From the IMG/VR virus record IMGVR_UViG_3300032315_001309, positions 1 through 12,304 of that record: DNA of 12,304 nucleotides; one strand, 5' to 3'. The DNA comes from a virus. Lineage: Duplodnaviria > Heunggongvirae > Uroviricota > Caudoviricetes. The first letter of the stretch is position 1. Every line of letters starts with the position of its first letter. Under the pieces are notes generated by a model that did not search any database, was not told the DNA's origin, and worked only from the letters and a program-made list of their open reading frames with translations. Shown piece after piece: positions 1 to 12,304 of this stretch. A program made the translations under genes and the position numbers.

Positions 1-497
1 CAGGTATAGCGACATTTGCAACTACTGCTGGATTTGCTTCTTCTTCCGCTGGTATAGCGACATTTGCAACTACCGCTGGATATGCCGCAACTGCAGGTAT
101 AGCCACCTTTGCAACTACTGCTGGATTTGTAGTAAACGCTGGATATGCCACCTCTGCAGGTATAGCCACCTTTGCAACTACTGCTGGATATGCGAGAACT
201 GCAGGTATATCTACTTTTGCAACTACCGCTGGTATAGCGACCTTTGCAACCTCTTCTGGATATGCAACCTCGGCAGGTATAGCTACCTTTGCAACTACTG
301 TTGGATTTGCTGCTACTGCTGGCTATGCAAGAACTGCAGGTATTATTGTTAGATCTAATGATACTTTAGTATCACCGGATCCAGTAGCAACAATCAATTT
401 TCTTGGCATTGGCAATACCTTTTCAGTTGAGGGTGATGTTGTCAATGTTTACCACACTGCTGGATTTGCTGCAGGTCTTGCTATTGCTTTTTCATAA
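1..497 (+). CDS. 3' end of an Ala-x-x (AGI/ATF/ATT/AGY) repeat virion or tail-fibre-like protein (5'-truncated; missing from the ORF track)
   Basis: Frame +3 is open from base 3 to TAA at 495-497: GIATFATTAGFASSSAGIATFATTAGYAAT...AGYARTAGIIVRSNDTLVSPDPVATINFLGIGNTFSVEGDVVNVYHTAGFAAGLAIAFS*. Such repeats are typical of cyanomyovirus fibre/structural proteins. Confidence 0.85.
   Translation, partial: GIATFATTAGFASSSAGIATFATTAGYAATAGIATFATTAGFVVNAGYATSAGIATFATTAGYARTAGISTFATTAGIATFATSSGYATSAGIATFATTVGFAATAGYARTAGIIVRSNDTLVSPDPVATINFLGIGNTFSVEGDVVNVYHTAGFAAGLAIAFS
3..345 (+). repeat. Coding tandem repeat, 9/18-nt period (GCWGGTATAGCNACNTTTGCAACTACY)
   Basis: Repeated ggtatagcNacNtttgcaac blocks encoding A-G-[IFY] / A-T-[FTS] tripeptides. 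Confidence 0.9.
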
Positions 498-500
498 ATA
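494..500 (+). promoter_or_regulatory. Putative T4-type late promoter (ATAAATA)
   Basis: cATAAATA overlapping the stop codon, 46 nt upstream of the ATG at 547. Confidence 0.5.
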
Positions 501-546
501 GTATGAAATTCAAACCACCTAATCCCACTGCTCATATAAAATAATC

Positions 547-1209
547 ATGAAACGTCAAGCTACCAGTTACACCTTTAATGCTTTGGCTAAAACCATCACT
601 TTTTCGGGGTTTATTCCGGCGAGCTTGGAAAGCATTCTTTTTGTTGATAACCGCACTACTGGAACTCTGATGTTGGCTCCGGCTGGTGGTGCGTTGTTGA
701 CTGGAACTTATGTTAGCCCAGTCTTAACTTTGGCTGTTCCTACTGGGGGTATGTTAAATACTGATGATCTACTTATTTTTGTAGATGATGGTTCAGCGAC
801 GGTGGCGATATCGGCCACATCTTTACCAATATCTGTTGGAGCCGCTACTAGCTCATTGCAGGGTATTGGTAATAGTACCTTAAATAGTATTAACGTCAAG
901 ATCCCAGCACCGGTAAATGGATTGGTGCCTGTTGATGTATTAAGTATTCCTGGTCAACCTAGATCTGTTGTGGCTGTGAGTACTTCAACTAACCTAGCAC
1001 TGACCACAACTTGTCGGCGTATTAGTATTACGGCTCGGGACGCCAACATTAGATTTAGTGTTGGAGTTGGTGCGCAGTCAGCCTCTGCTACATCCCATTA
1101 TATTTGGCAGGGGGAGAGGTTGGACTTTTCTGTGCCCGCCACTGCGAATATTGCTGCAATTCGCGCAGGAACATTAGATGGTACATTAGAAATTAGTGAA
1201 TATCTATGA
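547..1209 (+). CDS. Putative virion structural / tail-associated protein, 220 aa
   Basis: ORF track. N-terminal YTFNALAKTITF...ILFVDNRTTG resembles motifs I recall from phage structural proteins; beta-rich C-terminal domain; TGA overlaps the next ATG (ATGA). Confidence 0.6.
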   Translation: MKRQATSYTFNALAKTITFSGFIPASLESILFVDNRTTGTLMLAPAGGALLTGTYVSPVLTLAVPTGGMLNTDDLLIFVDDGSATVAISATSLPISVGAATSSLQGIGNSTLNSINVKIPAPVNGLVPVDVLSIPGQPRSVVAVSTSTNLALTTTCRRISITARDANIRFSVGVGAQSASATSHYIWQGERLDFSVPATANIAAIRAGTLDGTLEISEYL

Positions 1210-2171
1210 GAATAAGTTCTACACGACGAACTATATCTAGAAATAGTGGGCGATTAAAATTACCCGGAGAGGCTTGGCGTCGATGGGAAACTATAGATAA
1301 TCAATGGAGATCTGTTTGCTTTTCTGAATCTCTTGGGATATTTTGTGCAGTATCAGGTAATGGTACAGGTAATCGTGTCATGACATCACCGGATGGAGTG
1401 ACCTGGACTACAAGAACATCGGCAGCCGATAATAGCTGGAATTGTGTTTGCTTTTCTGAATCTCTTGGGTTGTTCTGTGCAGTAGCCAACAACGGTGTAA
1501 CCAATGCAGTCATGACATCACCGGATGGTGTGACATGGACTTCAAGAACAGCCCCAAATGCCAACAACTGGAGTTCTGTATGTTTTGCTGAATCTCTTGG
1601 GTTGTTTTGTGCAGTATCACAGAGTGGTACAGGTAATCGTGTCATGACATCACCGGATGGAGTGACATGGACCCAAAGAACCTCGGCATTTGATACCGTC
1701 TGGTATTCTGTCTGCTTTTCTGAATCTCTTGGGTTGTTTTGTGCAATAGCATCCAGCCGTACAATGATATCATCGGATGGCGTGAACTGGACTGCAAACA
1801 CAATTCCAACTAGTCTTTGGGGTTCCGTCATCTATGCTGAACCTCTTGGGTTGTTCTATGGGGTAACCGCTAATGGTAATGCTACTAATTCGGTCATAAC
1901 ATCACCAGATGGCGTGACATGGACTACAAGAGCAACTATAGATAACAACTGGGCTTCTGTATGTTTTTCTAAATCTTTCGGGTTGTTATGTGCTGTAGCC
2001 CGATTCGGCACAGGTAATCGCGTCATGACATCACCAGATGGCGTGACATGGACTGCAGGTACATCGGCAGCCGATAACACCTGGACTACTGTATGTTTTT
2101 CTGAATCTCTTGGGGTGTTCTGTGCTGTAGCCAACAACACCGTATTCGATTCAGCTATGACATCACCTTAA
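1206..2171 (+). CDS. Seven-bladed Asp-box (BNR-like) beta-propeller, putative receptor-binding/tail protein, 321 aa
   Basis: Seven ~44-aa repeats W-x-SVCFSESLGLFCAV...VMTSPDGVTWT; six contain a complete S-x-D-G-x-x-W Asp-box and the last is truncated at AMTSP*. Confidence 0.8.
   Translation: MRISSTRRTISRNSGRLKLPGEAWRRWETIDNQWRSVCFSESLGIFCAVSGNGTGNRVMTSPDGVTWTTRTSAADNSWNCVCFSESLGLFCAVANNGVTNAVMTSPDGVTWTSRTAPNANNWSSVCFAESLGLFCAVSQSGTGNRVMTSPDGVTWTQRTSAFDTVWYSVCFSESLGLFCAIASSRTMISSDGVNWTANTIPTSLWGSVIYAEPLGLFYGVTANGNATNSVITSPDGVTWTTRATIDNNWASVCFSKSFGLLCAVARFGTGNRVMTSPDGVTWTAGTSAADNTWTTVCFSESLGVFCAVANNTVFDSAMTSP
1305..2168 (+). repeat. Intragenic ~132-nt tandem repeats (propeller blades)
   Basis: For example, a 42-nt identical block TGGTACAGGTAATCGTGTCATGACATCACCGGATGGAGTGAC at 1361-1402 and 1625-1666 (distance 264 = 2x132). 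Confidence 0.9.
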
Positions 2172-2190
2172 ACCAAATTACTTTAAACTA

Positions 2191-2640
2191 ATGAATATCA
2201 CTATTGGATCTACAGTCATTCGCGCTAATGAAGCGCCGCCTAATCTCGCCACCGTTCTTGATATTAAGGGTGACACGGCTTACATTGAATATGAGGAGGG
2301 TGGAACTGGATATTGGCCAGTCGATACTCTGGAAATATATAATGCTCTACCACCTCCTCGCTGGGTTGAGTTTGTTCTGTCATTGGCCACAGATGTGGCC
2401 GTAACTCAGTTTATCGTTGGTGTTTCTCAGGTAGCACCGATGTTGGATCGTATGTTGACAGTGGGTCTAGGGCAGGCATCTCAAGGTGATTCACAAACAT
2501 TCCTGGCTGCATGGGGAACGGCTTTAGCGTCAGAGATGGTACCACCACAATTGATTACATATCTACAAACCATTGCAGCTACATATGACCTACCCCCAGA
2601 ATTTATTGCAGCGTTGTCACCACCACCGATAGAGGAGTGA
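2191..2640 (+). CDS. Hypothetical protein, 149 aa (possible tail-fibre accessory/chaperone)
   Basis: ORF track. Small beta (SH3-like) N-terminus, PPP linker, helical C-terminus; directly follows the propeller gene. Confidence 0.7.
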   Translation: MNITIGSTVIRANEAPPNLATVLDIKGDTAYIEYEEGGTGYWPVDTLEIYNALPPPRWVEFVLSLATDVAVTQFIVGVSQVAPMLDRMLTVGLGQASQGDSQTFLAAWGTALASEMVPPQLITYLQTIAATYDLPPEFIAALSPPPIEE

Positions 2641-2672
2641 GTTTTTGATTATTGGTATGTTGATTGAGTCTG

Positions 2673-2680
2673 TATAAATA
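2673..2680 (+). promoter_or_regulatory. T4-type late promoter TATAAATA
   Basis: Exact gp55 consensus in the intergenic region upstream of 2729. Confidence 0.7.
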
Positions 2681-2728
2681 TGGGTTACGATGATAACCTA
2701 AATAAATTAAATAATTGAGATACTCTTT

Positions 2729-2968
2729 ATGATTAAAATAACATGTAGGATGTGTGGAAAAGAAGTGCACACACAAGGAATTTGTGGTTGTCCTAATATG
2801 GCGTCAATTCACAATGATAAAATTACTGCTTTCGATTTATCACAAATCGTTATGACTGAATCTACTCGTAATAATAATTCTAATAGGCATCTAACTAACA
2901 TGGATCTAATGTGGCAAGAAGAAAGAAGGCGTCGAAAAATAAAGAAATTAGATTTTGATGAGAGATGA
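2729..2968 (+). CDS. Small Cys-rich (CxxC...CxC) cyanophage hypothetical protein, 79 aa
   Basis: CRMC...CGCPN motif; C-terminal RRRKIKKLDFDER; ATGA overlap with the next gene. Confidence 0.75.
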   Translation: MIKITCRMCGKEVHTQGICGCPNMASIHNDKITAFDLSQIVMTESTRNNNSNRHLTNMDLMWQEERRRRKIKKLDFDER

Positions 2969-3339
2969 ACTATAAACAATTTTTAAGAGAATCTACGGAA
3001 AAACAAATTAAATCTTTTACTGAATTTGTAAAGGATTACCTTGAATTGGATTCACTGCCAAAAATTGTTGTAATTAATGATCCAAAGTTTTCTATTGAAA
3101 ATAAAACATTTGGTTGTTTTGATTTGATGAATGATGTAATTAAAATTCAAATTTCAAACAGACACCCCTTAGATGTTTTTAGAACTCTCGCGCATGAGTT
3201 AGTACACTTTCAACAGAAAAAAAGTGGTAAAGAAATGTCAGGGGAAACTGGTTCTGATTGTGAAAATGAAGCAAATTCAGTGGCAGGTGAAATATTAAGA
3301 CATTATACTAAAACTGTTTCTAATCACGGATATAAATAA
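2965..3339 (+). CDS. Putative zinc metallopeptidase-like protein (HExxH), 124 aa
   Basis: FRTLAHELVHFQQ followed by ENEAN (candidate third Zn ligand Glu). Confidence 0.7.
   Translation: MNYKQFLRESTEKQIKSFTEFVKDYLELDSLPKIVVINDPKFSIENKTFGCFDLMNDVIKIQISNRHPLDVFRTLAHELVHFQQKKSGKEMSGETGSDCENEANSVAGEILRHYTKTVSNHGYK
3331..3338 (+). promoter_or_regulatory. T4-type late promoter TATAAATA
   Basis: Exact consensus ending 6 nt before the ATG at 3345, implying an almost leaderless mRNA. Confidence 0.65.
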
Positions 3340-3344
3340 AAATT

Positions 3345-3812
3345 ATGAAATTTAACTTTAACTTTGGAAGTAAAGAAAAAACTATTTTTGATTGGGTCAA
3401 AATTTCTTTGATCCTTGAAAGTATTCTTGAGTTTGTTTCAAGGACACTTAAGATCCCTAAGGATAAATTGTGGCCATTTATAGATGAAATTCAGCGAGAA
3501 TTGTTGAGAAGGGGTTGGATAGATGATACCGTAAATGAGTACATTATAGAAACACCTGAACTGTTAGAGCAAAGAGTGAAGCGAGATGTGGATAATGCTA
3601 TTGCTGATTATGTGAAACAAGAGCCCGAAGAAATCAATATGAAAAATGAAACTATCTTGGCCGAGATAGAAAAGGACAAGTATACAGAAGAACAGAAGAA
3701 AACGGTAAAAGAAGCTATATTTTATGAAAAACCACCTGATGGGAGTGCTGCCCAGGCCATACTAGGTGGGGAAATGGGCATAAAGGGGAAATGGGTTGAC
3801 AAAACCCGATAA
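3345..3812 (+). CDS. Hypothetical protein, 155 aa
   Basis: ORF track; phage-like codon usage; preceded by a late promoter. Confidence 0.75.
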   Translation: MKFNFNFGSKEKTIFDWVKISLILESILEFVSRTLKIPKDKLWPFIDEIQRELLRRGWIDDTVNEYIIETPELLEQRVKRDVDNAIADYVKQEPEEINMKNETILAEIEKDKYTEEQKKTVKEAIFYEKPPDGSAAQAILGGEMGIKGKWVDKTR

Positions 3813-3824
3813 ACCTGCTATATA
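3796..3824 (+). promoter_or_regulatory. Sigma70-type early promoter
   Basis: TTGACA (3796-3801), 17-nt spacer, TG-n-TATATA (3819-3824); tRNA-Pro starts 10 nt downstream. Confidence 0.8.
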
Positions 3825-3833
3825 GTATATGAC

Positions 3834-3908
3834 CGGGTATTAGCTCAGTTTGGCCAGAGCGTTCCGTTTGGGTCGGAAAAGTCAAAGGTTCGAATCCTTT
3901 ATACCCGA
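3834..3908 (+). tRNA. trnP: tRNA-Pro(UGG)
   Basis: CGGGTAT/ATACCCG acceptor, GCTC/GAGC D stem, TTCCG-TTTGGGT-CGGAA anticodon arm, AAAGG-TTCGAAT-CCTTT T arm, C1-G72 and A73; no encoded CCA. Confidence 0.95.
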
Positions 3909-3924
3909 TTGGTTGATTGACCAA

Positions 3925-3938
3925 ACACACACACACAC
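3925..3938 (+). repeat. (AC)7 microsatellite preceded by a small hairpin
   Basis: TTGGTT-GATT-GACCAA (3909-3924) then ACACACACACACAC, 16 nt upstream of the ATG at 3955. Confidence 0.85.
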
Positions 3939-3954
3939 CACATAGAATAATAAT

Positions 3955-4125
3955 ATGACACCATATGAATTGAGATTTTATATATTTCAACACGCTCAGG
4001 CGTATTTAATAGAAGAATATCGTAATAAACTAGAAACAAGTGATTCGGTTTCATTTCCTAGTTATGAACAAATTAGTAATTTAGCCGAAAAATTAAATGT
4101 ATTTGTATCAGGTGATAAACAATGA
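3955..4125 (+). CDS. Small hypothetical protein, 56 aa (below the ORF-track cutoff)
   Basis: MTPYELRFYIFQHAQAYLIEEYRNKLETSDSVSFPSYEQISNLAEKLNVFVSGDKQ*; TGA overlaps the next ATG; resembles a cyanomyovirus MTPYELRF family as I recall it. Confidence 0.75.
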   Translation: MTPYELRFYIFQHAQAYLIEEYRNKLETSDSVSFPSYEQISNLAEKLNVFVSGDKQ

Positions 4126-4364
4126 AAGCGACTGAATTTTGTTATTGGTTACAAGGATTTTTTGAAATTGATGGGGTAAGTCCACGAACAGGTCCTTATT
4201 TTACTTGCGAACAAGTTGAAATTATTCAACGACACCTTGCTCTTGTTTTTAAGCATGATATTGATCCAAAAGTTGGATCACCTCAATATCAAGCGGAATT
4301 GCAACAAATACATGACGGTAAACCGACAAATACAGGACATGGATCTGTACTTTTTGGGTGTTAA
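4122..4364 (+). CDS. Phage hypothetical protein, 80 aa
   Basis: N-terminal FCYWLQGFFE motif, recurrent in large phages. Confidence 0.75.
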   Translation: MKATEFCYWLQGFFEIDGVSPRTGPYFTCEQVEIIQRHLALVFKHDIDPKVGSPQYQAELQQIHDGKPTNTGHGSVLFGC

Positions 4365-4366
4365 TT

Positions 4367-4612
4367 ATGAAAACAGACCAAGAATTATTTGAGCGTTTTC
4401 AGTCATTAACAAGAGACATTATGGCAACAGCATCAGTTGTTCAAAATGATCATGATCGACTTATTGCTGATGGTATGATTAAATATGAGGATGTTATAGA
4501 AATATGGCGTCAATTCCTACAGAGATTTTCTGATCATAGAGAAGAAATAGATTGTCTTTTTTCAGATGTAAATATAAGACTGGTCGAGGTTTTAAATAAA
4601 TTAAAATATTAA
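4367..4612 (+). CDS. Hypothetical helical protein, 81 aa
   Basis: The ORF track starts at GTG 4358; ATG 4367, just after the previous stop, is more plausible. Confidence 0.7.
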   Translation: MKTDQELFERFQSLTRDIMATASVVQNDHDRLIADGMIKYEDVIEIWRQFLQRFSDHREEIDCLFSDVNIRLVEVLNKLKY

Positions 4613-4623
4613 TTTCACACAAA

Positions 4624-4854
4624 ATGGCAAAGACTTCTTATAGCAGGCACCAAGCACAAAAGCTTAAGAATAAATGGGAGAGGTTGAGTAAACATTTAGA
4701 ATATATTCCCGAAAGTTCACTTTCTTTTGGTAAACTATTTAAACAGGATCCATGTGATTGTGGGAATCCAAAATGTGCCATTTGTAGCTACCCTAAGCGT
4801 TTTCGTAAAAACAAACTAAACAAAAACACCGAAGTTTTTGATGAGTTAGCCTGA
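4624..4854 (+). CDS. Small basic Cys-rich hypothetical protein, 76 aa
   Basis: DPCDCGNPKCAICSYPK motif (possible Zn site); Lys/Arg-rich. Confidence 0.7.
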   Translation: MAKTSYSRHQAQKLKNKWERLSKHLEYIPESSLSFGKLFKQDPCDCGNPKCAICSYPKRFRKNKLNKNTEVFDELA

Positions 4855-4958
4855 GACGGAGCATCAACTGGCACAAGCCATTCGACTTCCAAGCCAATCG
4901 GTGGTACATTACATGTGTTGGTGAGTCGTCCGGCACATAGCCGGAAAAGACGCCATAT

Positions 4959-5020
4959 AAGATCAGTCAGCAACAACAAATACATTAGTCTCTTAAACTA
5001 ACCCGTAAAAACTGATCTTG
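4959..5020 (+). ncRNA. CAGCAA stem-loop RNA, copy C1
   Basis: P1 AAGATCAGT (4959-4967)/ACTGATCTT (5011-5019) + G; CAGCAA at 4968; inner hairpin TTAGT-CTCTTAA-ACTAA (4985-5001); CGTAAAA before the 3' strand. Confidence 0.7.
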
Positions 5021-5024
5021 CCTT

Positions 5025-5075
5025 AAGTTGATACAGCATAAAAACTGTAGCAAAAAAACAAACCCAATCAACTTG
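5025..5075 (+). ncRNA. CAGCA stem-loop RNA, copy C2 (in the DUF2828 leader)
   Basis: P1 AAGTTGAT (5025-5032)/ATCAACTT (5067-5074) + G; ACAGCA motif; inner TGT-9nt-ACA as in copy B2. Confidence 0.65.
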
Positions 5076-5081
5076 TGAAAA

Positions 5082-6557
5082 ATGACTTTTATTACTGCAC
5101 TTGAATCTGAATTGAATACCACTGAAACTCTAAATGGAGCTAAGGCATATAAATCTACTCTCAACAAATGCCTGGATCTTTTTGGTAAGATCGGCGCATG
5201 TCGCAATAATATCAAACAGGCAGAAAAACTGTTTGATCTAGCATATCGAGAAGATCCTGAAACTGCAACTCGTATTCTTTTCTGGGTAAGGGATGTACGT
5301 GGAGGTAGCGGTGAGCGTAGTATCTTCCGCACTCTATTTAAAAATCTTGTCCAAAAGAATCAAGAGCTTGGCCAAAAGCTAGTAGCACTTGTTCCTGAGT
5401 ATGGTCGTTGGGACGATCTGCTCGTTCTGGAAAATACTTCTGTTTGGAATCAAGTTTTAGATCTGATTACACATCAACTGAATACCGATCAAATCATGAT
5501 GGCCAGTGGTGGTCAGGTTTCTCTACTTGCTAAATGGCTTCCAAGCATTAACGCATCCAGTAAAGATAGTAAGCGTCTTGGACGTGAAATCGCTCAGCAT
5601 ATGGTGCTGACTGAAAGGCAGTATCGGAAAACTCTGGCTCGTCTTCGCTCTCATATTAAAATTGTGGAGCAGCAAATGTGCTCTAAGGAATGGTCTGCCA
5701 TTGATTATTCCAAAGTACCTTCACGAGCTTCTTTCATGTATCGTAAGGCATTTGGAAAACAGGATCCTACCCGATATCAGAAATATCTAACTGATGTTGA
5801 GAATGGCAAGGCAAAAATCAATGCGAGCACCCTATATCCATATGATGTTGTAGATCAGTATCTCAATAAGGGAGCACGGGGAGATAAGACTATTGATCTT
5901 CAATGGGAAGCTCTACCAAACTATATGGGTGATAATCTCCTAAATGGTCTTGTTGTAGCCGACGTTTCTGGTTCCATGACTCAAAATAATGGACTACCGT
6001 TGGCCGTTTCTATCTCTCTTGCGATGTATATTGCAGAGCGAAATGCATCACCAGTTTGGAAAGACAAGTTCATTACTTTCTCTAGTCAACCTGAGTTGCA
6101 AACTGTTGTTGGTAAAACTATTGGAGAACGTATTCAAAATCTTTCCAGAGCAGATTGGGGATATAATACTAATCTCATCAGCGTATTCAAAACTATTCTG
6201 AAAGCAGCTAAGAGTAAAGATGTTGCTCCAGTGGATATGCCACAAAAAGTAATTATTGTTTCTGATATGCAATTTGATCAAGCTTGTGTTTCTAACAAAC
6301 GAACTAACTTTGAGCATATTGAAAAACTCTATCGTGCTTCTGGGTATGAGTTACCTCAACTGGTCTTTTGGAATGTCAATGCAATTGGCGCTAATGTTCC
6401 AATGACTGTTGCTGATTACAATACCTGTTTGGTTTCTGGTTGTTCCCCATCCATCTTAAAATCTGTTCTCAAAGGTGAAATTGTCACTGCTGTGGATATG
6501 ATGAGTGATGCTGTATATTCTGAAAGGTATATGCAGGTCGGAGCGGCATTCAACTAA
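5082..6557 (+). CDS. DUF2828-family protein with C-terminal vWA domain (Ro60/TROVE-like RNA-binding protein), 491 aa
   Basis: Family motifs RDVRGGSGER, YGRWDDL, LAKWLPS, YSKVPS, MIDAS-type DVSGSM, FITFS, WGYNTN, SDMQFD, VFWN, LVSG. TROVE-like helical toroid plus vWA architecture is inferred, not computed. Confidence 0.85.
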   Translation: MTFITALESELNTTETLNGAKAYKSTLNKCLDLFGKIGACRNNIKQAEKLFDLAYREDPETATRILFWVRDVRGGSGERSIFRTLFKNLVQKNQELGQKLVALVPEYGRWDDLLVLENTSVWNQVLDLITHQLNTDQIMMASGGQVSLLAKWLPSINASSKDSKRLGREIAQHMVLTERQYRKTLARLRSHIKIVEQQMCSKEWSAIDYSKVPSRASFMYRKAFGKQDPTRYQKYLTDVENGKAKINASTLYPYDVVDQYLNKGARGDKTIDLQWEALPNYMGDNLLNGLVVADVSGSMTQNNGLPLAVSISLAMYIAERNASPVWKDKFITFSSQPELQTVVGKTIGERIQNLSRADWGYNTNLISVFKTILKAAKSKDVAPVDMPQKVIIVSDMQFDQACVSNKRTNFEHIEKLYRASGYELPQLVFWNVNAIGANVPMTVADYNTCLVSGCSPSILKSVLKGEIVTAVDMMSDAVYSERYMQVGAAFN

Positions 6558-6588
6558 TTTAACTAAAATTATCAAAGAGGCTAAACTA

Positions 6589-6756
6589 GTGGAAATTTAT
6601 GTTCGATGGGTTGGTGGAAAGTATGCAGAGGTTCATGTTGATTTTACTGGGGGTCACATTGAAAGTGGACTTCTCAATTGCAACGAACAAGTTGCGTATG
6701 GTGCCATGTTTCGTGAATTAGCGAATGAATTGGACCCAGAAACGACTGATGATTGA
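6589..6756 (+). CDS. Hypothetical protein, ~55 aa
   Basis: The ORF-track start at 6505 overlaps the DUF2828 gene; in-frame GTG at 6589 has a GAGG SD 8 nt upstream: MEIYVRWVGGKYAEVHVDF...DPETTDD*. Confidence 0.55.
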   Translation: MEIYVRWVGGKYAEVHVDFTGGHIESGLLNCNEQVAYGAMFRELANELDPETTDD

Positions 6757-6759
6757 CCG

Positions 6760-6779
6760 TAATGGCCCAGTGGCCATTA
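6760..6779 (+). terminator. Hairpin, possible terminator or processing site
   Basis: TAATGGCC-CAGT-GGCCATTA perfect 8-bp stem right after the stop codon; only a short T tract (ATTTCG). Confidence 0.45.
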
Positions 6780-6795
6780 ATTTCGAAAAGGGGGG

Positions 6796-6824
6796 TTGAC
6801 AAGCTCGCCCCCCTCTGCTAAGAT
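6796..6824 (+). promoter_or_regulatory. Sigma70-type promoter for the RNA array
   Basis: TTGACA, 17-nt spacer, TG-n-TAAGAT (6819-6824); the first RNA repeat starts at 6832, about the expected TSS. Confidence 0.8.
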
Positions 6825-6831
6825 AAATTCA

Positions 6832-6880
6832 TAGATGATTCAGCCATTAAACTTTTTTGGTAAAAAACAACATCATCTAG
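6832..6880 (+). ncRNA. CAGCCA stem-loop RNA, copy A1
   Basis: TAGATGAT/ATCATCTA 8-bp P1 + G; TCAGCCA; inner TTTT-TTGGTAA-AAAA. Confidence 0.7.
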
Positions 6881-6891
6881 ATTTAAAACCT

Positions 6892-6947
6892 TAGGTGGTT
6901 CAGCAACTAAAAATATACTAAGTCAAACTACAGTAAAAACCACCTAG
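6892..6947 (+). ncRNA. CAGCAA stem-loop RNA, copy B1
   Basis: TAGGTGGTT/AACCACCTA P1 + G; CAGCAA; inner AGT-CAA-ACT; AGTAAAA before the 3' strand. Confidence 0.7.
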
Positions 6948-6954
6948 TTAATTT

Positions 6955-7064
6955 CGGGGAATAGCTCAATGGTAGAGCAACGTAAAATATATCTAGTTTA
7001 GATATTAACTGCAATTTAAAGCATTCGGAGCCGTTGGTTGTAGGTTCGAATCCTGCTTCCCCGA
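6955..7064 (+). tRNA. tRNA-Arg(UCG)-like gene with a 38-nt insertion at 29/30 (T1)
   Basis: CGGGGAA/TTCCCCG acceptor, GCTC-AATGGTA-GAGC D arm, GTAGG-TTCGAAT-CCTGC T arm. Removing 6983-7020 gives the anticodon arm ACGGC-ATTCGGA-GCCGT. Amino-acid identity is uncertain: no A20, and C1-G72/A73 are Pro-like. Confidence 0.7.
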
Positions 7065-7065
7065 T

Positions 7066-7117
7066 TAGATGATTCAGCCATTAAACTTTTTTTGGTAAAA
7101 AATACAACATCATCTAG
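7066..7117 (+). ncRNA. CAGCCA stem-loop RNA, copy A2
   Basis: Near-identical to A1 (one extra T, plus a TA insertion); starts 1 nt after the T1 discriminator. Confidence 0.7.
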
Positions 7118-7143
7118 TATTTTTAAATTTTTATGATATAATT

Positions 7144-7193
7144 TAGGTGGTTCAGCAAATACTGTTTTCCAAATACAAACACCATCCACCTAG
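7144..7193 (+). ncRNA. CAGCAA stem-loop RNA, copy B2
   Basis: TAGGTGG/CCACCTA P1 + G; TTCAGCAA; inner TGT-TTTCCAAAT-ACA. Confidence 0.7.
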
Positions 7194-7201
7194 TTAATTT
7201 T

Positions 7202-7312
7202 GGAGAGATAGCTCAGTTGGTAGAGCAGCGTAAAATATATCTAGTTTTAGGTATTAACCGCAATACAAGCATGTTAAGCCGTTTGTCGTAAGTTCGAATC
7301 TTACTCTCTCCG
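7202..7312 (+). tRNA. tRNA-Asn(GUU)-like gene with a 38-nt insertion at 29/30 (T2)
   Basis: GGAGAGA/TCTCTCC acceptor, G73 (Asn discriminator), GCTC/GAGC D stem, GTAAG-TTCGAAT-CTTAC T arm. Removing 7231-7268 gives GCGGC-ATGTTAA-GCCGT. Confidence 0.75.
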
Positions 7313-7313
7313 T

Positions 7314-7363
7314 TAGATGATTCAGCCATTAAACTTTTTTTGGTAAAAAACAACATCATCTAG
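7314..7363 (+). ncRNA. CAGCCA stem-loop RNA, copy A3
   Basis: Near-identical to A1; starts 1 nt after the T2 discriminator. Confidence 0.7.
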
Positions 7364-7381
7364 ATTTTTTGAATGTCTCCT

Positions 7382-7454
7382 GGGCGCATGGTGAAGTGGA
7401 TTATCACTAGGAGCTTCTACCTCCTCATCCCTGGTTCGAATCCAGGTGCGCCTG
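7382..7454 (+). tRNA. trnR: tRNA-Arg(UCU)
   Basis: GGGCGCA/TGCGCCT acceptor, A20 in the D loop, AGGAG-CTTCTAC-CTCCT, CCTGG-TTCGAAT-CCAGG. Confidence 0.92.
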
Positions 7455-7459
7455 TTAAA

Positions 7460-7489
7460 GTGACATACTTCCTTCTTTTACTATATAAT
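7460..7489 (+). promoter_or_regulatory. Possible internal sigma70 promoter
   Basis: GTGACA, 18-nt spacer, TATAAT (7484-7489), just upstream of tRNA-Gly. Confidence 0.4.
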
Positions 7490-7496
7490 ATATAAT

Positions 7497-7569
7497 GCGA
7501 AATTAGTTCAGCGGCTAGAACGCTATCCTTCCAAGTTAGATGTCACCGGTTCGAATCCGGTATTTCGCT
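7497..7569 (+). tRNA. trnG: tRNA-Gly(UCC)
   Basis: GCGAAAT/ATTTCGC acceptor, U73, GTTC/GAAC D stem, CTATC-CTTCCAA-GTTAG (one T-T mismatch), ACCGG-TTCGAAT-CCGGT. Confidence 0.92.
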
Positions 7570-7606
7570 TAACAATCAATGACAAACGTATTACGATTGT
7601 GTGAAC

Positions 7607-7680
7607 GGGAACGTAGCTCAATTGGTTAGAGCACCCACCTTATAAGTGGGAGGTTCTGGGTTCAATCCCCAGCGTTCCTA
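7607..7680 (+). tRNA. trnI: tRNA-Ile(UAU)
   Basis: GGGAACG/CGTTCCT acceptor, A73, CCCAC-CTTATAA-GTGGG, CTGGG-TTCAATC-CCCAG. Confidence 0.92.
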
Positions 7681-7710
7681 TTGACTTTTGAATTTCCCCC
7701 GCTGGGGGGC

Positions 7711-7740
7711 TTGACAGGCCAGGATCTCCTGTGCTATGAT
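7711..7740 (+). promoter_or_regulatory. Sigma70-type promoter
   Basis: TTGACA, 18-nt spacer, TG-n-TATGAT; followed by a GGCC-GCAA-GGCC leader hairpin and a late-like CATAAATA (7761-7768). Confidence 0.75.
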
Positions 7741-7803
7741 CAACGTAAGGCCGCAAGGCCCATAAATATCATGGATTCAAATTTCGTTAACTCATTCAAA
7801 TCA

Positions 7804-8019
7804 ATGTCACTGACCACAAAATTTAAAAAAGATATCCAGGTGCTGCGGCAAGCTGCTAATGGTGAATTTTATTTGGACGTAAAAAACCCAAAACTTTTTA
7901 AGAAAGTAAAACGTTACTATGAAGATGTTGGTGTAGTTTTTTCTGGTGATCCTGAAGATGATTATGAAATGCTGATCGATTACCTATATGAAGATCTTGA
8001 AGTACAACCGGTTGCGTAA
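7804..8019 (+). CDS. Conserved cyanophage hypothetical protein, 71 aa
   Basis: MSLTTKFKKDIQVLRQAANGEFYLDVKNPKLFKKV...; the ORF-track TTG start at 7681 lies upstream of the promoter, so ATG 7804 (or 7771) is more likely. Confidence 0.75.
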   Translation: MSLTTKFKKDIQVLRQAANGEFYLDVKNPKLFKKVKRYYEDVGVVFSGDPEDDYEMLIDYLYEDLEVQPVA

Positions 8020-8245
8020 TTTAGATAAGTTTACAACTTATAGATATCTTGGAAATTTACTTATTATCATTGGATACTACATTCTACTTTGGCAAAGTGA
8101 GTCTGTCGGTTTAATCATAAAGCTAGTTGGGACTCTCATGGCCATACCCTCACTTTATGTTCTTAAGTTGTGGGATGCTTTGGTTATATGTGGATTCTTT
8201 GCTCTAATTGAATTTTCAAGATTATTTTATTTAATAAATCAATGA
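7988..8245 (+). CDS. Small membrane protein, three hydrophobic segments
   Basis: YLGNLLIIIGYYILLW, GLIIKLVGTLMAIPSL, LWDALVICGFFALIEF; start uncertain. Confidence 0.7.
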   Translation: MKILKYNRLRNLDKFTTYRYLGNLLIIIGYYILLWQSESVGLIIKLVGTLMAIPSLYVLKLWDALVICGFFALIEFSRLFYLINQ

Positions 8246-9033
8246 TAGGATTTAACTCTTTGGGTTTACTGGGTAGATTGGGCAATCAAATGTTTCAATA
8301 TGCTTCTTTAAAAGGTATTGCAAATAAGAACAATTACCAATATTGTATTCCCCCCTCACGTAATATTGATGAATGGAGAGATCATCAACTCTTCAACTGC
8401 TTTACTCTTAAGAATCTTAGTAAATTAAATATTCAGTATATTAAAGCTGGAAGACCTGTAGTACATGAAGCGTCTTTTGGTTTTGATGAAAAGCTTTTTG
8501 GTGAATGTCCTTCTTGGGTCAGTTTAGTTGGGTTTTTTCAATCTGAAAAATATTTTAAGCATATTGAACGAGAAATTAGAGAAGACTTTACCTTTGTGAA
8601 TTCGATTTTAATTCCATGTCAAGAAGCTATTGCAGATCTGAAAAATCCAGTTTCATTGCACATACGAAGAACCGATTACTTAACTAATCCGAATCATCAT
8701 TGTTTACCTTTAAGTTATTATGAAAAAGCACTTGGACAGTTTGATAGTGATAGGGCAGTAATCATTTTTACGGACGATCCAGATTGGATCTATACGCAAA
8801 AATTATTTTCAGATGATCGATTTGTTGTTTCTCTGGGTCAATCAAACTACATGGATCTTTGTCTAATGTCTTTGTGTAGTGAACACATTATCGCAAACAG
8901 TAGTTTTTCTTGGTGGGGTGCCTGGTTATCAAAATCTAGAAAAATAATCGCACCCTCGAATTGGTTTATTGGTTCCAACAATGCACACCTAGATACTAAG
9001 GATTTAATTCCAAGTGAATGGGAGCTATTATGA
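8242..9033 (+). CDS. Alpha-1,2-fucosyltransferase-like protein, glycosyltransferase family 11
   Basis: GRLGNQMFQYA, HIRRTDY, IFTDD, NSSFSWWGAWL motifs. Confidence 0.9.
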   Translation: MIGFNSLGLLGRLGNQMFQYASLKGIANKNNYQYCIPPSRNIDEWRDHQLFNCFTLKNLSKLNIQYIKAGRPVVHEASFGFDEKLFGECPSWVSLVGFFQSEKYFKHIEREIREDFTFVNSILIPCQEAIADLKNPVSLHIRRTDYLTNPNHHCLPLSYYEKALGQFDSDRAVIIFTDDPDWIYTQKLFSDDRFVVSLGQSNYMDLCLMSLCSEHIIANSSFSWWGAWLSKSRKIIAPSNWFIGSNNAHLDTKDLIPSEWELL

Positions 9034-9752
9034 AAGTTGCAATTATTTTTATCGGAACATCAAATTATATTAATTTTCTTCCACTTTATTATGAAAAGTG
9101 TGAAGAAAATTTTCTTGTAAATACGGATAAAACGTATTTCGTTTTCACTGACGGTGAGCTTTCCGACTCACCCGAAAACGTTTTACCTTATTATCAAGAT
9201 CATTTGGATTGGCCATATATTACTTTGAATCGTTTTCAAATCATTAATACGATTAAAAAAGACTTAGAGGATTTCGATTGGCTTGTTTTTATGGATGCAG
9301 ATACACTGGTCGTGGATAAAGTGTCGGAGAATGAATTCTTTACAGATAAACCTTTTTTTGGAGTACATCACCCCTGCGCCTACATGAAAATGTCGCCCCA
9401 CGAGACCCCTCCAGGGGCCTATGAGGCCGATCCACGGTCCAGGGCTTACGTTGACACCGGCATTGATGGGAATTTTGGCCCATACCTCCAAGGCTGCCTG
9501 TGGGGTGGGAAAACTCCCGAGATTTTTTCTTTAATTGATGAGTTAGAGGAAAACATAAAAAAAGATTTGGAAGATAATATTATTGCGGTGTGGCACGATG
9601 AAAGTCATTTGAATCATTATTTCATGAAGCATAAAGAAATGGTTCATGTGCTTGGACCACAATATGCTTATCCTGAGATATTTGCTCAACATTGTCAATT
9701 CGAACCAAAGATTGTACATTTAGCAAAAGATAATGGTAAGTATCAACAATGA
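9030..9752 (+). CDS. Glycosyltransferase family 6 (ABO/alpha-1,3-Gal(NAc)T-like)
   Basis: FIGTSNY, FVFTD, WPYITLNRF, FMDAD (DxD), YLQGCLWGG, WHDESHLNHYF; ATG 9030 overlaps the GT11 stop. Confidence 0.88.
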   Translation: MKVAIIFIGTSNYINFLPLYYEKCEENFLVNTDKTYFVFTDGELSDSPENVLPYYQDHLDWPYITLNRFQIINTIKKDLEDFDWLVFMDADTLVVDKVSENEFFTDKPFFGVHHPCAYMKMSPHETPPGAYEADPRSRAYVDTGIDGNFGPYLQGCLWGGKTPEIFSLIDELEENIKKDLEDNIIAVWHDESHLNHYFMKHKEMVHVLGPQYAYPEIFAQHCQFEPKIVHLAKDNGKYQQ

Positions 9753-10474
9753 AAATTGCAGTTTGTTATCGAGGATTCTTAAGAACTATCACGCAAACAT
9801 TTCAAAATCATCAAGAGAAATTATTTAAGGATCATGATGTAGATTTCTTTGTTCATACATGGAATAAATATCCAGAAGAGATAGCTTACGTTCAACGAAA
9901 TCTAAACCCCAAAAGAATTTTAATTGAAGATACAAAAAGACTAGAAGTTAATCCATATAACTCGATTCAGTTTAATTCTATAAATTTTCAACCCGATTTC
10001 AACAAAAACAAAAAATTATCTAATAATGGGTTGCACTCAAAACCATATAATGTTTTGAGTATGTTATACTCTTTGATGATGGTTAATTCCTTACGTAAAG
10101 AATATTCCGATGACTATCGCTTAATTATTTCAATTAGACCTGATATCTTTTTTTATGATGATTTGGATCTAAATCAAACACAACCAAATCATCTGAATAT
10201 CTCTTGGTTTGAAAATATTGGCGATCATTTAAATCATTCTGATTCAATTATTGATCATATTGCAATTGGAGATTCAAATACGATTAATCGATATTCTGAT
10301 TGTTTTTTATATGTACCATCATATTATTTTAATTTTGGGATTCAATTGGTTCCAGAAATTTTGCTTGGCTATCATGCGAGACATCATCAAAATTTAAAAG
10401 TTAATATGCTAAACTCTAGACATTCTGTAATTAGAATTGCAAATTATAATTCACTCGATAATACTGACAAATGA
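9749..10474 (+). CDS. Putative glycosyltransferase-like protein of phage glycan islands, 241 aa
   Basis: KIAVCYRGFLR...DFFVHTW N-terminus and IRPDI motif; gene context. Confidence 0.55.
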   Translation: MKIAVCYRGFLRTITQTFQNHQEKLFKDHDVDFFVHTWNKYPEEIAYVQRNLNPKRILIEDTKRLEVNPYNSIQFNSINFQPDFNKNKKLSNNGLHSKPYNVLSMLYSLMMVNSLRKEYSDDYRLIISIRPDIFFYDDLDLNQTQPNHLNISWFENIGDHLNHSDSIIDHIAIGDSNTINRYSDCFLYVPSYYFNFGIQLVPEILLGYHARHHQNLKVNMLNSRHSVIRIANYNSLDNTDK

Positions 10475-11166
10475 ACCTAAAGGATTTAGAATTAATTAGT
10501 GTAGATCAAAAACTTTATGATGGATTCAATGATTTTATCATGAGTTCAGATCTAAAGGTTTTTGGTAAACTACTGGCCAGGACTTTATTATTTCAGAAAG
10601 TAAAAGATATTCCGGGGGATATTGTTGAATGTGGCGTTTTTAAGGGCAGTGGATTATTTACTTTTTTGAAATTGAAAAGATATTTTTGTCCTAACACGTA
10701 TAAGAAAGTAATTGGATTTGATTTCTTTGATTCAAAAAAATTAACTGAATCTCTTTCTTCACACGACAAACAGACAATGACTCTTTTGTTTGAACAAAGA
10801 AATTTCACACATGACTTGTTTTATAACAATTTCTTAGAAAAGAAATTTATTGATTGTGGATTCATGGATCATGAATTTGAATTAATAGCGGGTGATATAT
10901 CAAAGTCAGTTCTGCATTTTGTGGAGAACAGACCCGGTGCTAAAATTTCACTACTTTATCTTGATTTGGATTTAGAGATTCCTACTTATGACACTTTAAC
11001 TTCTTTATGGAATAGAGTATCTTCAGGTGGAATTGTTGTTTTTGATGAGTATGCATATCATAATTGGTCTGAATCAATTGGGGTGGATAAATTCTTCAAA
11101 GACAAAAACGTAAAAATAGAATCCTTAAATTATGTTGCCCCCTCTGCATATGTAATAAAGCCATGA
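10471..11166 (+). CDS. TylF/MycF-family sugar O-methyltransferase
   Basis: IPGDIVECGVFKG, GFDFFD, LYLDLDL, GGIVVFDEY. Confidence 0.85.
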   Translation: MNLKDLELISVDQKLYDGFNDFIMSSDLKVFGKLLARTLLFQKVKDIPGDIVECGVFKGSGLFTFLKLKRYFCPNTYKKVIGFDFFDSKKLTESLSSHDKQTMTLLFEQRNFTHDLFYNNFLEKKFIDCGFMDHEFELIAGDISKSVLHFVENRPGAKISLLYLDLDLEIPTYDTLTSLWNRVSSGGIVVFDEYAYHNWSESIGVDKFFKDKNVKIESLNYVAPSAYVIKP

Positions 11167-12304
11167 ATAATTATTTATCAATCTTTGACCTTGATGGTGT
11201 TTTAATTGAAAGCCGAGAAATGCATTATAATGCATTGAATCAAGCATTAGAGAATGTAGATCCGAAGTTTGTAATATCTAAAGAAGAACATTTGAGTTCT
11301 TATGATGGTCTGCCGACTTCTATTAAGTTGAGTCTATTGACGGAAAACAAAGGTCTACCTATTGACAAACACCAACAAATATGGGAAGATAAACAGAAAG
11401 CATCTATCGAAATCTTTTCAGATCTAGAAAATGATTATGAATTAATGAGTTATTTTAAACAACTTAAAAATCATAATTATCGTATTGCGGTTGCGAGTAA
11501 TAGTATACGCAATACCGTAAAGTTAGTTCTTTTAAAATTGGGACTTCTTGAATTTATTGATTATTATGTCAGTAATGAAGATGTCATTAGAAATAAGCCG
11601 TTTCCTGAAATGTATTGGAAATGTATGTCCGCTTGTAACTGTATTCCAAAGCACACTGTAATTTTTGAGGATAGTCATATTGGAAGACAAGGTGCCATAG
11701 ACAGTGGGGCTCACTTAATTCCAATTGAGAACAGATTTGACTTGAATCAAGCAAAGATCAATAAAATTTTTGATATATTTGAAAACCAATGCGTAACTCA
11801 CATACCATGGAGATCTGAAAAAATGAATGTGCTTATTCCTATGGCTGGAGCCGGTAGTCGATTTGCCGATGCTGGATATACTTTTCCCAAGCCATTGATT
11901 GAAGTAAATGGGAAACCAATGATTCAAGTGGTTGTAGAGAACCTTAATATTGAGGCAAACTATACCTTTATTGTACAGAAAGAACATTACTTAAAGTATA
12001 GTCTACAATACCTCTTGAACTTGATTGCACCAAATTGTAATATAGTACAGGTGGATCAATTAACTCAAGGCGCAGCATGTACTACATTACTTGCGAGTGA
12101 ATTTATTGATAATGATTCACCACTTCTGATCGCTAACTCCGATCAATTTGTTGAGTGGAATAGTAATGAATGCCTCTATGCATTTAATGCTGACGGTATT
12201 GATGGTGGAATTTTAACATTTAAAAATTGCCATCCAAAATGGTCATTTGCTAAAATTGGAAGTGATGGTTTCGTATCTGAAGTAGCAGAAAAGAAACCAA
12301 TTAG
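11163..12304 (+). CDS. HAD-family phosphatase fused to a sugar-nucleotidyltransferase-like domain (3'-truncated; missing from the ORF track)
   Basis: Open from ATG 11163 to the window end: FDLDGVL, VASNS, NKPFPE, IFEDS (HAD motifs I-IV), then MNVLIPMAGAGSRF...FPKPLI, TQGAACT, NSDQ, EKKP. Confidence 0.9.
   Translation, partial: MNNYLSIFDLDGVLIESREMHYNALNQALENVDPKFVISKEEHLSSYDGLPTSIKLSLLTENKGLPIDKHQQIWEDKQKASIEIFSDLENDYELMSYFKQLKNHNYRIAVASNSIRNTVKLVLLKLGLLEFIDYYVSNEDVIRNKPFPEMYWKCMSACNCIPKHTVIFEDSHIGRQGAIDSGAHLIPIENRFDLNQAKINKIFDIFENQCVTHIPWRSEKMNVLIPMAGAGSRFADAGYTFPKPLIEVNGKPMIQVVVENLNIEANYTFIVQKEHYLKYSLQYLLNLIAPNCNIVQVDQLTQGAACTTLLASEFIDNDSPLLIANSDQFVEWNSNECLYAFNADGIDGGILTFKNCHPKWSFAKIGSDGFVSEVAEKKPI

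Follow-up and report, generated by a model that had tools for sequence, protein, structure and literature searches.

Do phage proteins of the DUF2828 family have an RNA partner, and what would such a partner look like? This question is raised by a 12,304-nt stretch of DNA from a virus of the Caudoviricetes (positions 1 to 12,304 of IMG/VR record IMGVR_UViG_3300032315_001309; the whole stretch is referred to as the window), in which a gene for a Ro60-like protein with a DUF2828 region and a vWA domain is flanked by nine copies of one small RNA element, seven of them free and two embedded in tRNA genes. The source phage is a freshwater cyanophage; Synechococcus phages B3 and B23 (T4-like Kyanoviridae, 245 kb) show 96% identity to the window, which is contained in a 76-kb virus record. 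The first-pass annotation of the locus had proposed a distinct class of Y-like RNAs bound by the DUF2828 protein, and our computations (co-occurrence of RNA and gene, no Rfam match, a Ro60 fold) support this class and suggest the binding. We think it rather probable that the nine elements are small non-coding RNA genes with a common handle that docks the Ro60-like protein, forming a particle like that of Ro60 and Y RNAs, of which it is probably an undescribed relative.

Scanning both strands of the window for a helix of at least 7 bp followed within 2 nt by CAGC and enclosing a loop of 20-60 nt, we found exactly seven elements, all on the plus strand and in two clusters around the DUF2828 gene, namely the two stem-loops upstream (C1 and C2) and the five downstream (A1, B1, A2, B2 and A3) that had been read by eye at first pass (Table 1). 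Block-shuffled sequences gave 1.5 ± 1.3 elements on both strands together (maximum 6), and none of the 200 shuffles reached seven. All seven elements fold as a terminal helix enclosing a large loop, and the architecture described for them by the first-pass annotation is present in every fold: a terminal helix of 7-10 bp that starts with (U/A)AG and closes with CU(A/U) and then G, the motif (U/A)CAGC(A/C)A with CAGC(A/C)A placed 0-2 nt after the first strand, and a variable insert before the 3' helix strand, with module lengths of 50-63 nt. The helices differ among copies yet pair, as had been noted, and 4 of the 8 core pairs are changed on both sides across the copies in an alignment that was pre-selected for pairing. 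A covariance model built from 36 copies, including two from the window (A1 and A3), recovered all seven elements on the plus strand with filters off, C1 being the weakest. C1 has a 10-bp terminal helix (4958-4967 with 5011-5020) with a U·G closing pair and CAGCAA at 4968-4973, and its inner hairpin (4985-5001) consists of 5 bp and a 7-nt loop, CUCUUAA, resembling the anticodon loop of tRNA-Lys(CUU). This inner hairpin, which was not selected for pairing, is paired in all 15 aligned sequences (14 orthologues and the window), and both partners differ among them in 3 of 4 pairs. The inner U/A hairpin of A1 carries the loop UUGGUAA, and the handle RNAs of two related loci (L002 and L004) have the inner loop UUUGGGU, which is the anticodon loop of the tRNA-Pro in the window. 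A reading of the elements as miniature inverted-repeat transposable elements or another DNA repeat was rejected on account of their strand specificity and of covariation that preserves RNA pairing.

The association of the handle with the gene was then followed in 60 IMG/VR loci encoding relatives of the protein. In about 40 metagenomic loci of related phages the handle is found together with the DUF2828 protein, each time on the strand of its gene. Every locus with upstream sequence and a protein 62-75% identical to that of the window has a C2-type copy just 5' of the gene, usually with a C1-type copy before it, and the loci of this identity range also have several A/B-type copies 3' of the gene. 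CAGC-closed helices in the related loci number 169 on the gene's strand versus 7 on the other, with 3-26 for nine control 4-mers, and CAGCAA words are closed by a helix in 54% of cases near the gene on its strand versus about 7% elsewhere. The covariance model, through which a link between motif and gene had been expected to appear, gave 122 matches in 47 sources (the window and 46 loci), all 122 on the gene's strand; among five large records of related phages, of which three are rated at least 98% complete by CheckV and B3 is a complete genome, 17 of 20 matches lie within about 5 kb of the gene, including 4 of 4 in B3. Conversely, when the 15-mer AGATGATTCAGCAAT was looked up in IMG/VR, 10 of the 18 stretches whose match forms a module had the gene on that strand, versus 1 of 65 for non-module matches, and three further module-forming matches lie on contigs known to carry the gene.

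This association extends to distant phages. A strict handle pattern scan with strand controls was applied to 21 loci whose proteins are 26-47% identical to that of the window, yielding 40 handles on the gene's strand outside the gene and 0 on the other strand, with 16 of the 21 loci positive. The positive phages include Felix O1-like Alf5, with three handle copies within its tRNA cluster, mycobacteriophage Aegeus, Listeria A511, Campylobacter F368, Staphylococcus CF9, Enterococcus TJE2, Vibrio BUCT194 and Yersinia P778. In consensus, the handles of these phages have a helix that often reads AGA...UCU; after its first strand come (U/A)(U/A)A-CAGCAA and a variable region, and G(U) follows the 3' strand. 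The covariance model trained on cyanophages recovers almost none of these distant handles with filters off, and is thus lineage-specific. In TJE2 the open handles enclose a permuted tRNA domain like that of YrlA, their variable part running from a T arm through a closed acceptor hairpin to a D arm. In Aegeus, gene 61 (L063 3978-4121), a 144-nt 'hypothetical protein' coding sequence after the Ro-like gene, is overlain by handles at 3979-4036 and 4050-4099, and is probably not a protein gene. RNA-repair-type genes are found near several distant DUF2828 genes, namely RtcB and an HD phosphohydrolase in A511 (L064), an RNA ligase in XbC2 (L186), a phosphoesterase with a Band-7 protein in Aegeus (L063) and a metallophosphoesterase in CF9 (L068).

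The likeness of the 491-aa protein to Ro60, which the first-pass annotation had already named, was found again at the level of the predicted structure. An N-terminal helical-repeat ring (DUF2828) is followed by a vWA domain (DUF7788) with a complete MIDAS (an adhesion site dependent on metal ions; D294-x-S296-x-S298, T363 and D395), whose DxSxS, T and D are invariant in the protein alignment, as are nearly so many Arg and Lys residues of the ring. The AlphaFold2 model, computed from a 69-sequence alignment, has a mean predicted local distance difference test score (pLDDT) of 91.7 and shows the architecture of the Ro60 family, in which a vWA domain with a MIDAS closes the helical-repeat ring at the C-terminal end. 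Foldseek ranked Ro60 structures (Xenopus, human, Deinococcus Rsr and Thermus phage phiLo) as all of the best 13 PDB matches, with full-length alignment and template modelling (TM) scores of 0.35-0.61, mostly 0.45-0.61; Foldseek hits on Ro60 structures have E 4e-7 and TM 0.5-0.6. In the AlphaFold database/Swiss-Prot ranking Ro60 came first, followed by telomerase p80 and TEP1, which are TROVE proteins. Homologues are numerous, with 711 phage records and 6,917 representative clusters.

Some probable members of the family have been studied under other names. Bas63 gp130, from a Felix O1-like coliphage, has a Ro60-like structure and is encoded just upstream of a tRNA cluster; it counters the Ppl defence and is toxic when overexpressed (10.1101/2024.10.10.617714). 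LeBron gp53, a mycobacteriophage 'Ro-like RNA-binding protein', is moderately toxic in M. smegmatis (PMC13148394). Proteins of Felix O1-like and cluster L phages are 35-41% identical to the window protein, and both Bas63 gp130 and the mycobacteriophage Ro-like proteins probably belong to the same family; to judge from its genus, gene position and description, gp130 is probably a DUF2828 orthologue. The first-pass annotation knew of no RNA partner for DUF2828, and we likewise found no published description of one in the literature on DUF2828, Ro-like proteins and TROVE/RtcB; the authors of the Bas63 preprint had, nevertheless, already suggested Y RNAs among the 'tRNAs' neighbouring this probable Felix O1-type homologue (10.1101/2024.10.10.617714).

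The first-pass annotation had also seen the module in two tRNAs, and this holds in an altered form, since the linear covariance model gives the embedded regions only 3.7-3.8 bits, and what the two tRNAs carry is a permuted, closed handle within 38-nt inserts. Both 110-nt genes were found as Rfam matches and missed by ARAGORN. Their Rfam tRNA (RF00005) scores of 51.4 and 50 bits exceed the family's threshold, which is 29, though the alignment needs a 49-nt insertion. Once positions 6983-7020 and 7231-7268 are deleted, ARAGORN recognises a tRNA-Arg(tcg) and a tRNA-Asn(gtt) in which the anticodon stem has 5 bp and its loop 7 nt, and we therefore read the genes as tRNAs with a handle-bearing insert. 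The alternative description as tRNA bodies with a replaced anticodon loop was rejected, since removal of the inserts leaves an intact tRNA-Arg and tRNA-Asn. The insert sits at position 29/30, in the 5' strand of the anticodon stem, in both. The closed handles read AUAUCUA G UU UAGAUAU UAA CUGCAAU (tRNA-Arg, 6989-7015) and AUAUCUA G UUU UAGGUAU UAA CCGCAAU (tRNA-Asn, 7237-7264), in the order 3' strand, G, loop, 5' strand, spacer and motif, which is the handle circularly permuted, its ends joined by a small loop. An alignment of 10 sequences (the two window copies and eight orthologues from other loci) shows that the insert site is kept, that the acceptor and T stems covary through compensating substitutions, and that the anticodons differ. 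In related loci closed handles number 115 on the gene's strand versus 21 on the other and usually have the exact CAGCAAU, and a closed handle also lies inside a 115-nt tRNA match of Vibrio phage BUCT194. Cronobacter phage S13 (L066) has two over-long 'tRNA' genes of 121 and 113 nt (4868-4988 and 4998-5110) downstream of its DUF2828 gene, one annotated tRNA-OTHER, in which neither the open- nor the closed-handle scan found a handle; their inserts may be a different variant.

The downstream modules, as had been supposed, appear to stand under their own promoter. The predicted sigma-70-type promoter TTGACA-17-TAAGAT ends 7 nt upstream of A1, with a predicted transcription start at about 6831, the first base of A1, and the same spacing to the first downstream module is kept in 12 of 20 related loci; elsewhere, the module lies directly 3' of a tRNA end. 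Its -35 TTGACA is flanked by a pairable G-run and C-run (GGGGGGTTGACA...CCCCCC), found in the window at 6790-6813 and 7696-7716; this G-run/TTGACA/C-run arrangement also precedes the RNA array in about a dozen related loci and recurs in the window before the next gene block, at about 7711. Within the array, A2 begins immediately 3' of the discriminator base of the handle-bearing tRNA-Arg(UCG), and A3 adjoins the handle-bearing tRNA-Asn(GUU) upstream of it and is followed by AUUUUUU and then, at 7381, by tRNA-Arg(UCU). Compared with B3 and B23, the window has one additional A-B-tRNA unit of about 248 bp at 7065-7312. The two handle-bearing tRNA paralogues of the window agree in 91 of 115 alignment columns (79%), their stems having changed in a compensating manner, and the likeness among the A copies is 92-96%; the A modules thus look more strongly conserved than the tRNA paralogues, or homogenised.

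These findings suggest the following picture. The handle, consisting of the terminal helix with its conserved outer pairs (AG...CU), the single-stranded (U/A)CAGCAA and the conserved G after the second strand, would most likely dock the neighbouring DUF2828-vWA ring protein, giving a particle analogous to that of Ro60 (Rsr) and Y RNAs. The variable part would be a cargo or adaptor: a small hairpin, here and there resembling an anticodon loop, in the seven short RNAs, and in the two others a whole tRNA (Arg-UCG or Asn-GUU) with the handle grafted into its anticodon stem. The five downstream short RNAs and the two handle-tRNAs probably derive from one precursor that starts just before A1 and runs in the order promoter, A1, B1, tRNA, A2, B2, tRNA and A3 on to tRNA-Arg, and its ends would be set by tRNA-processing enzymes. 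C1 and C2 would lie in the leader of the protein's mRNA, and binding to C2, which ends 6 nt 5' of the ATG, could give translational feedback. During infection the particle probably serves the quality control of tRNA or RNA, or else counter-defence; since the inner loops resemble anticodon loops and the handle-tRNAs show different anticodons, we conjecture that it might serve as a bait, a shield or a repair guide for tRNAs hit by host nucleases.

Several observations weigh against this picture. Expression as discrete RNAs and protein binding are, like processing, autoregulation and biological role, deduced from sequence. No Rfam family matches the module copies of the window (E ≤ 1 over the whole window, E ≤ 10 over the module stretches), which also bears out the novelty expected at first pass, and the handle is a short perfect helix with a single-stranded CAGCAA, without the bulged Ro-binding helix of Y RNAs, as the first-pass annotation had already remarked. 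The Pfam scan of the protein returns DUF2828 and DUF7788 only, with no match to TROVE (PF05731), and neither phmmer nor the 69-sequence profile finds any PDB chain at E ≤ 10, so that no solved Ro60 is reached by sequence. Because the fold matches without a sequence match to TROVE or to a solved Ro60, the protein is, on the evidence of its predicted model, a separate lineage with the same architecture as Ro60. No handle was found in the scanned flanks of 5 of the 21 distant loci, and in the IMG/VR record behind one related locus (G003, behind L040) three strong model matches lie on the minus strand at 133554-137591, about 70 kb from the DUF2828 gene, which suggests that some genomes hold a second RNA cluster. 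The embedded motifs of the window are degenerate (CUGCAA and CCGCAA) compared with the exact CAGCAAU in most of the eight orthologues. Finally, Bas63 gp130 alone, whether plasmid-borne or in T7, relieves Ppl (10.1101/2024.10.10.617714), and its anti-Ppl activity therefore needs no phage-encoded RNA.

How do other explanations fare against the same data? A purely cis-acting role, in which C1 and C2 form a leader or operator for the DUF2828 mRNA and the downstream copies are spacers that process or stabilise the tRNA precursor, with no free particle, would account for the contact of the downstream copies with tRNA ends and for the position of the C2-type copies, whose 3' ends lie some 6-12 nt ahead of the start codon in the window, in closely related loci (about 10 nt where the protein is 62-75% identical) and in several distant loci. 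However, in Aegeus and CF9 the copies lie just 3' of the gene and adjoin no tRNA, a predicted promoter with a start at the first helix base stands before many copies, and whole tRNAs as well as permuted tRNA domains carry the same handle as a graft, which would be unexpected for a spacer; we therefore regard this explanation as unlikely. It is possible that C2 is a translational operator, and this role is compatible with the docking of the handle by the Ro60-like protein, because an operator would also need the protein to bind the handle.

The handle might also be the target of a different factor, for instance a host enzyme that processes or modifies tRNA, or a phage RNA ligase or nuclease, with the Ro60-like gene as a mere neighbour in tRNA and RNA-repair islands. 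RNA-repair genes are indeed often near in A511, XbC2, Aegeus and CF9, and the phage record that contains the window has an open reading frame (ORF) of the RNA-ligase family 45 kb away. However, the DUF2828 gene alone is constant among the neighbours, the repair genes being variable; RtcB is encoded neither in B3 nor in three related near-complete genomes, and the Pfam and PHROG annotation of the window contains no RNA-repair gene, which makes such a factor a rather improbable explanation. More doubtful still is that the 38-nt inserts are intron-like or mobile elements removed by cutting and religation, the free modules being selfish or functionless by-products. Removal of the inserts does restore a canonical tRNA-Arg and tRNA-Asn, paralogues with other anticodons share the insert site, and RNA ligases are encoded in these phages; but to our knowledge no splicing mechanism for such tRNA inserts exists in bacteria or phages, the handle and the protein gene stay together across phage families in which the locus has no insert-bearing tRNA, and the free modules are strand-specific, covary and have predicted promoters, so that we give this idea very little credence. 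That the elements are decayed tRNA fragments or chance hairpins of an A/T-rich intergenic region is hardly credible, for although the T-arm sequences (GGUUCGAUUCC) in some related-locus modules fit decay and make a descent from tRNA likely, the shuffles, the strand bias, the covariation and the conservation with the gene across distant phage families contradict it.

We collected the features of the locus in Table 1. The window also has four ordinary tRNAs called by ARAGORN, namely Pro-UGG at 3834 and Arg-UCU, Gly-UCC and Ile-UAU at 7381-7680. Five unrelated phages, that of the window included, have a tRNA-Pro(UGG) gene no more than about 2.5 kb from the DUF2828 gene. A Salmonella-type rsr-yrlBA-rtcBA arrangement was rejected for this locus on the absence of RtcB from B3 and the three related genomes. 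Between the Ro60-like gene and the RNA promoter lies a small ORF (6505-6756; 83 aa from GTG, annotated as 56 aa in B3) for which the family search returned no match; 3' of it we read a weak terminator-like hairpin that the terminator scan did not call. Downstream of the tRNA cluster are two neighbouring glycosyltransferase genes (8242-9752), of family 11 (fucosyltransferase-like) and family 6, and an ORF (11163-12302) that includes a HAD-hydrolase-like segment.

Table 1. Coordinates of the features of the locus (window positions unless another phage is named) and the evidence for each
Feature	Positions	Strand	Evidence
C1 open-handle module	4958..5020	+	fold; module scan; covariance model, 18.6 bits
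C2 open-handle module (9-bp helix, A, CAGCA)	5024..5075	+	fold; module scan; covariance model, 45.4 bits
Ro60-like protein gene, 491 aa	5082..6557	+	Pfam DUF2828 and DUF7788; PHROG 850 'RNA-binding protein'; AlphaFold2; Foldseek; protein alignment
Hairpin AAUGGCC-CAGU-GGCCAUU then AAUUUCG, weak terminator-like	6761..6778	+	read from sequence, 3' of small ORF
Predicted sigma-70-type promoter TTGACA-17-TAAGAT	6796..6824	+	promoter scan, 10 of 12 matches
A1 open-handle module (UAGAUGAU / AUCAUCUA + G; UCAGCCA)	6831..6880	+	fold; module scan; covariance model, 58.8 bits
B1 open-handle module (UUAGGUGGU / ACCACCUAG; UCAGCAA)	6891..6947	+	fold; module scan; covariance model, 50.5 bits
tRNA-Arg(UCG) body with 38-nt insert (6983-7020)	6955..7064	+	Rfam tRNA, 51.4 bits; ARAGORN after deletion; closed-handle scan; alignment
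A2 open-handle module	7065..7117	+	fold; module scan; covariance model, 58.1 bits
B2 open-handle module (UAGGUGG / CCACCUA + G; UUCAGCAA)	7143..7193	+	fold; module scan; covariance model, 42.1 bits
tRNA-Asn(GUU) body with 38-nt insert (7231-7268)	7202..7312	+	Rfam tRNA, 50 bits; closed-handle scan; alignment; ARAGORN after deletion
A3 open-handle module	7313..7363	+	fold; module scan; covariance model, 58.9 bits
tRNA-Pro(UGG) near DUF2828 gene	window 3834-3908; Alf5 (L062) 4064-4137; A511 (L064) 869-943; CF9 (L068) 5063-5136; BUCT194 (L187) 783-856		

The DUF2828 family comprises thousands of proteins in hundreds of cultured phages, including the therapy-relevant Felix O1-like, Listeria P100/A511-like and Staphylococcus phages, and one probable member is an experimentally demonstrated counter-defence factor. 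A defined RNA partner, if true, would turn DUF2828 into a testable ribonucleoprotein and would extend the principle of Ro60 and Y RNAs to a second protein lineage. It would also explain why phage tRNA clusters contain unannotated gaps and spurious small ORFs, and the handle-bearing tRNAs would represent a new kind of tRNA gene.

Among known systems, that of Ro60 (Rsr) and Y RNAs is the one to which this locus invites comparison. Bacterial and phage Ro60 proteins bind Y RNAs encoded alongside (PMC4201824, PMC12135203), for instance in Thermus phage phiLo, which has phiRo60 with Yrl1 and Yrl2 (PMC12135203), and the Y-like RNA YrlA holds a permuted tRNA domain (PMC4201824, 10.1101/312249, PMC12135203). 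Both systems have a helical-repeat ring and a vWA domain with a MIDAS, in our case as predicted; in both, the RNA genes adjoin the gene of the Ro60-type protein on the same strand, and the RNA combines a terminal stem with a variable or tRNA-like module; and both are tied to tRNA clusters and, in relatives of the window, to RNA-repair genes. The protein here, in contrast, belongs to Pfam DUF2828/DUF7788 instead of TROVE. The window copies give no match at the gathering thresholds of the Rfam Y RNA and YrlA families (RF00019 and RF02553), and the TJE2 copies score 46.8 and 35.7 bits on YrlA (RF02553), below its threshold of 69. Unlike YrlA, most handle copies are only 50-63 nt long and lack a tRNA domain: a tRNA body is joined to the handle in two of the nine copies, via the anticodon stem, with the tRNA ends open and the anticodon loop kept, and the other seven have none. 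Since these two handle-tRNAs keep their own ends and anticodon loop, with the handle inserted in the anticodon stem, they show the permutation opposite to that of YrlA, and may be the same overall object, a tRNA body with a Ro-binding stem, opened at the other place in the circle. Bas63 gp130 and LeBron gp53 differ from our proposal in that no RNA partner is named in those studies and the phenotype comes from the protein alone.

The second comparison is with the Class I RNAs of dictyostelid social amoebae (Aspegren 2004), which are 42-65 nt long and have a short stem joining the 5' and 3' ends with an 11-nt motif beside the 5' strand (PMC7919456). Their pattern is GTTGRCCTTACAGCAA...GTCAACTG, and in the 11-nt motif CCUUACAGCAA the T, C, C, A and A at positions 3, 6, 9, 10 and 11 are nearly invariant (PMC5054030). 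They have been reported to be unique to Dictyostelia and to bind the RRM protein Rnp1A; a Ro60-like partner for them has not been reported. The window modules, with end-joining helices of 7-10 bp, fall within the Class I length range, and the two groups are alike in design: the first stem strand is immediately followed on its 3' side by a conserved single-stranded motif with ACAGCAA at its end, then come a variable remainder and a 3' tail containing G, and a genome has many copies. The window motif (U/A)CAGC(A/C)A corresponds only to Class I positions 5-11, and distant phage copies read UUACAGCAA or UAACAGCAA. On Dicty_Class_I_RNA (RF01414) the BUCT194 handles score 31.2 and 26.1 bits, below the threshold of 41.5, and the window copies give no match even at E ≤ 10; the Class I RNAs thus have the same design as the handle RNAs, but the latter are not formal members of RF01414. 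The likeness nevertheless gives a concrete starting point for explaining the Class I RNAs, the mechanism of which has been an open question since 2004, and a shared family would offer them a candidate protein partner and a function. We tentatively suggest that the handle and DUF2828 form an ancient and widespread ribonucleoprotein, sister to that of Ro60 and Y RNA, in which the handle would be a universal adaptor by which phages attach tRNA parts, or whole tRNAs of selected anticodons, to the protein, and the Class I RNAs would be the eukaryotic members; with equal reserve, we suggest that the display of tRNAs by such a particle might serve, for example, as a bait or shield against tRNA-cutting host defences or as a repair guide.

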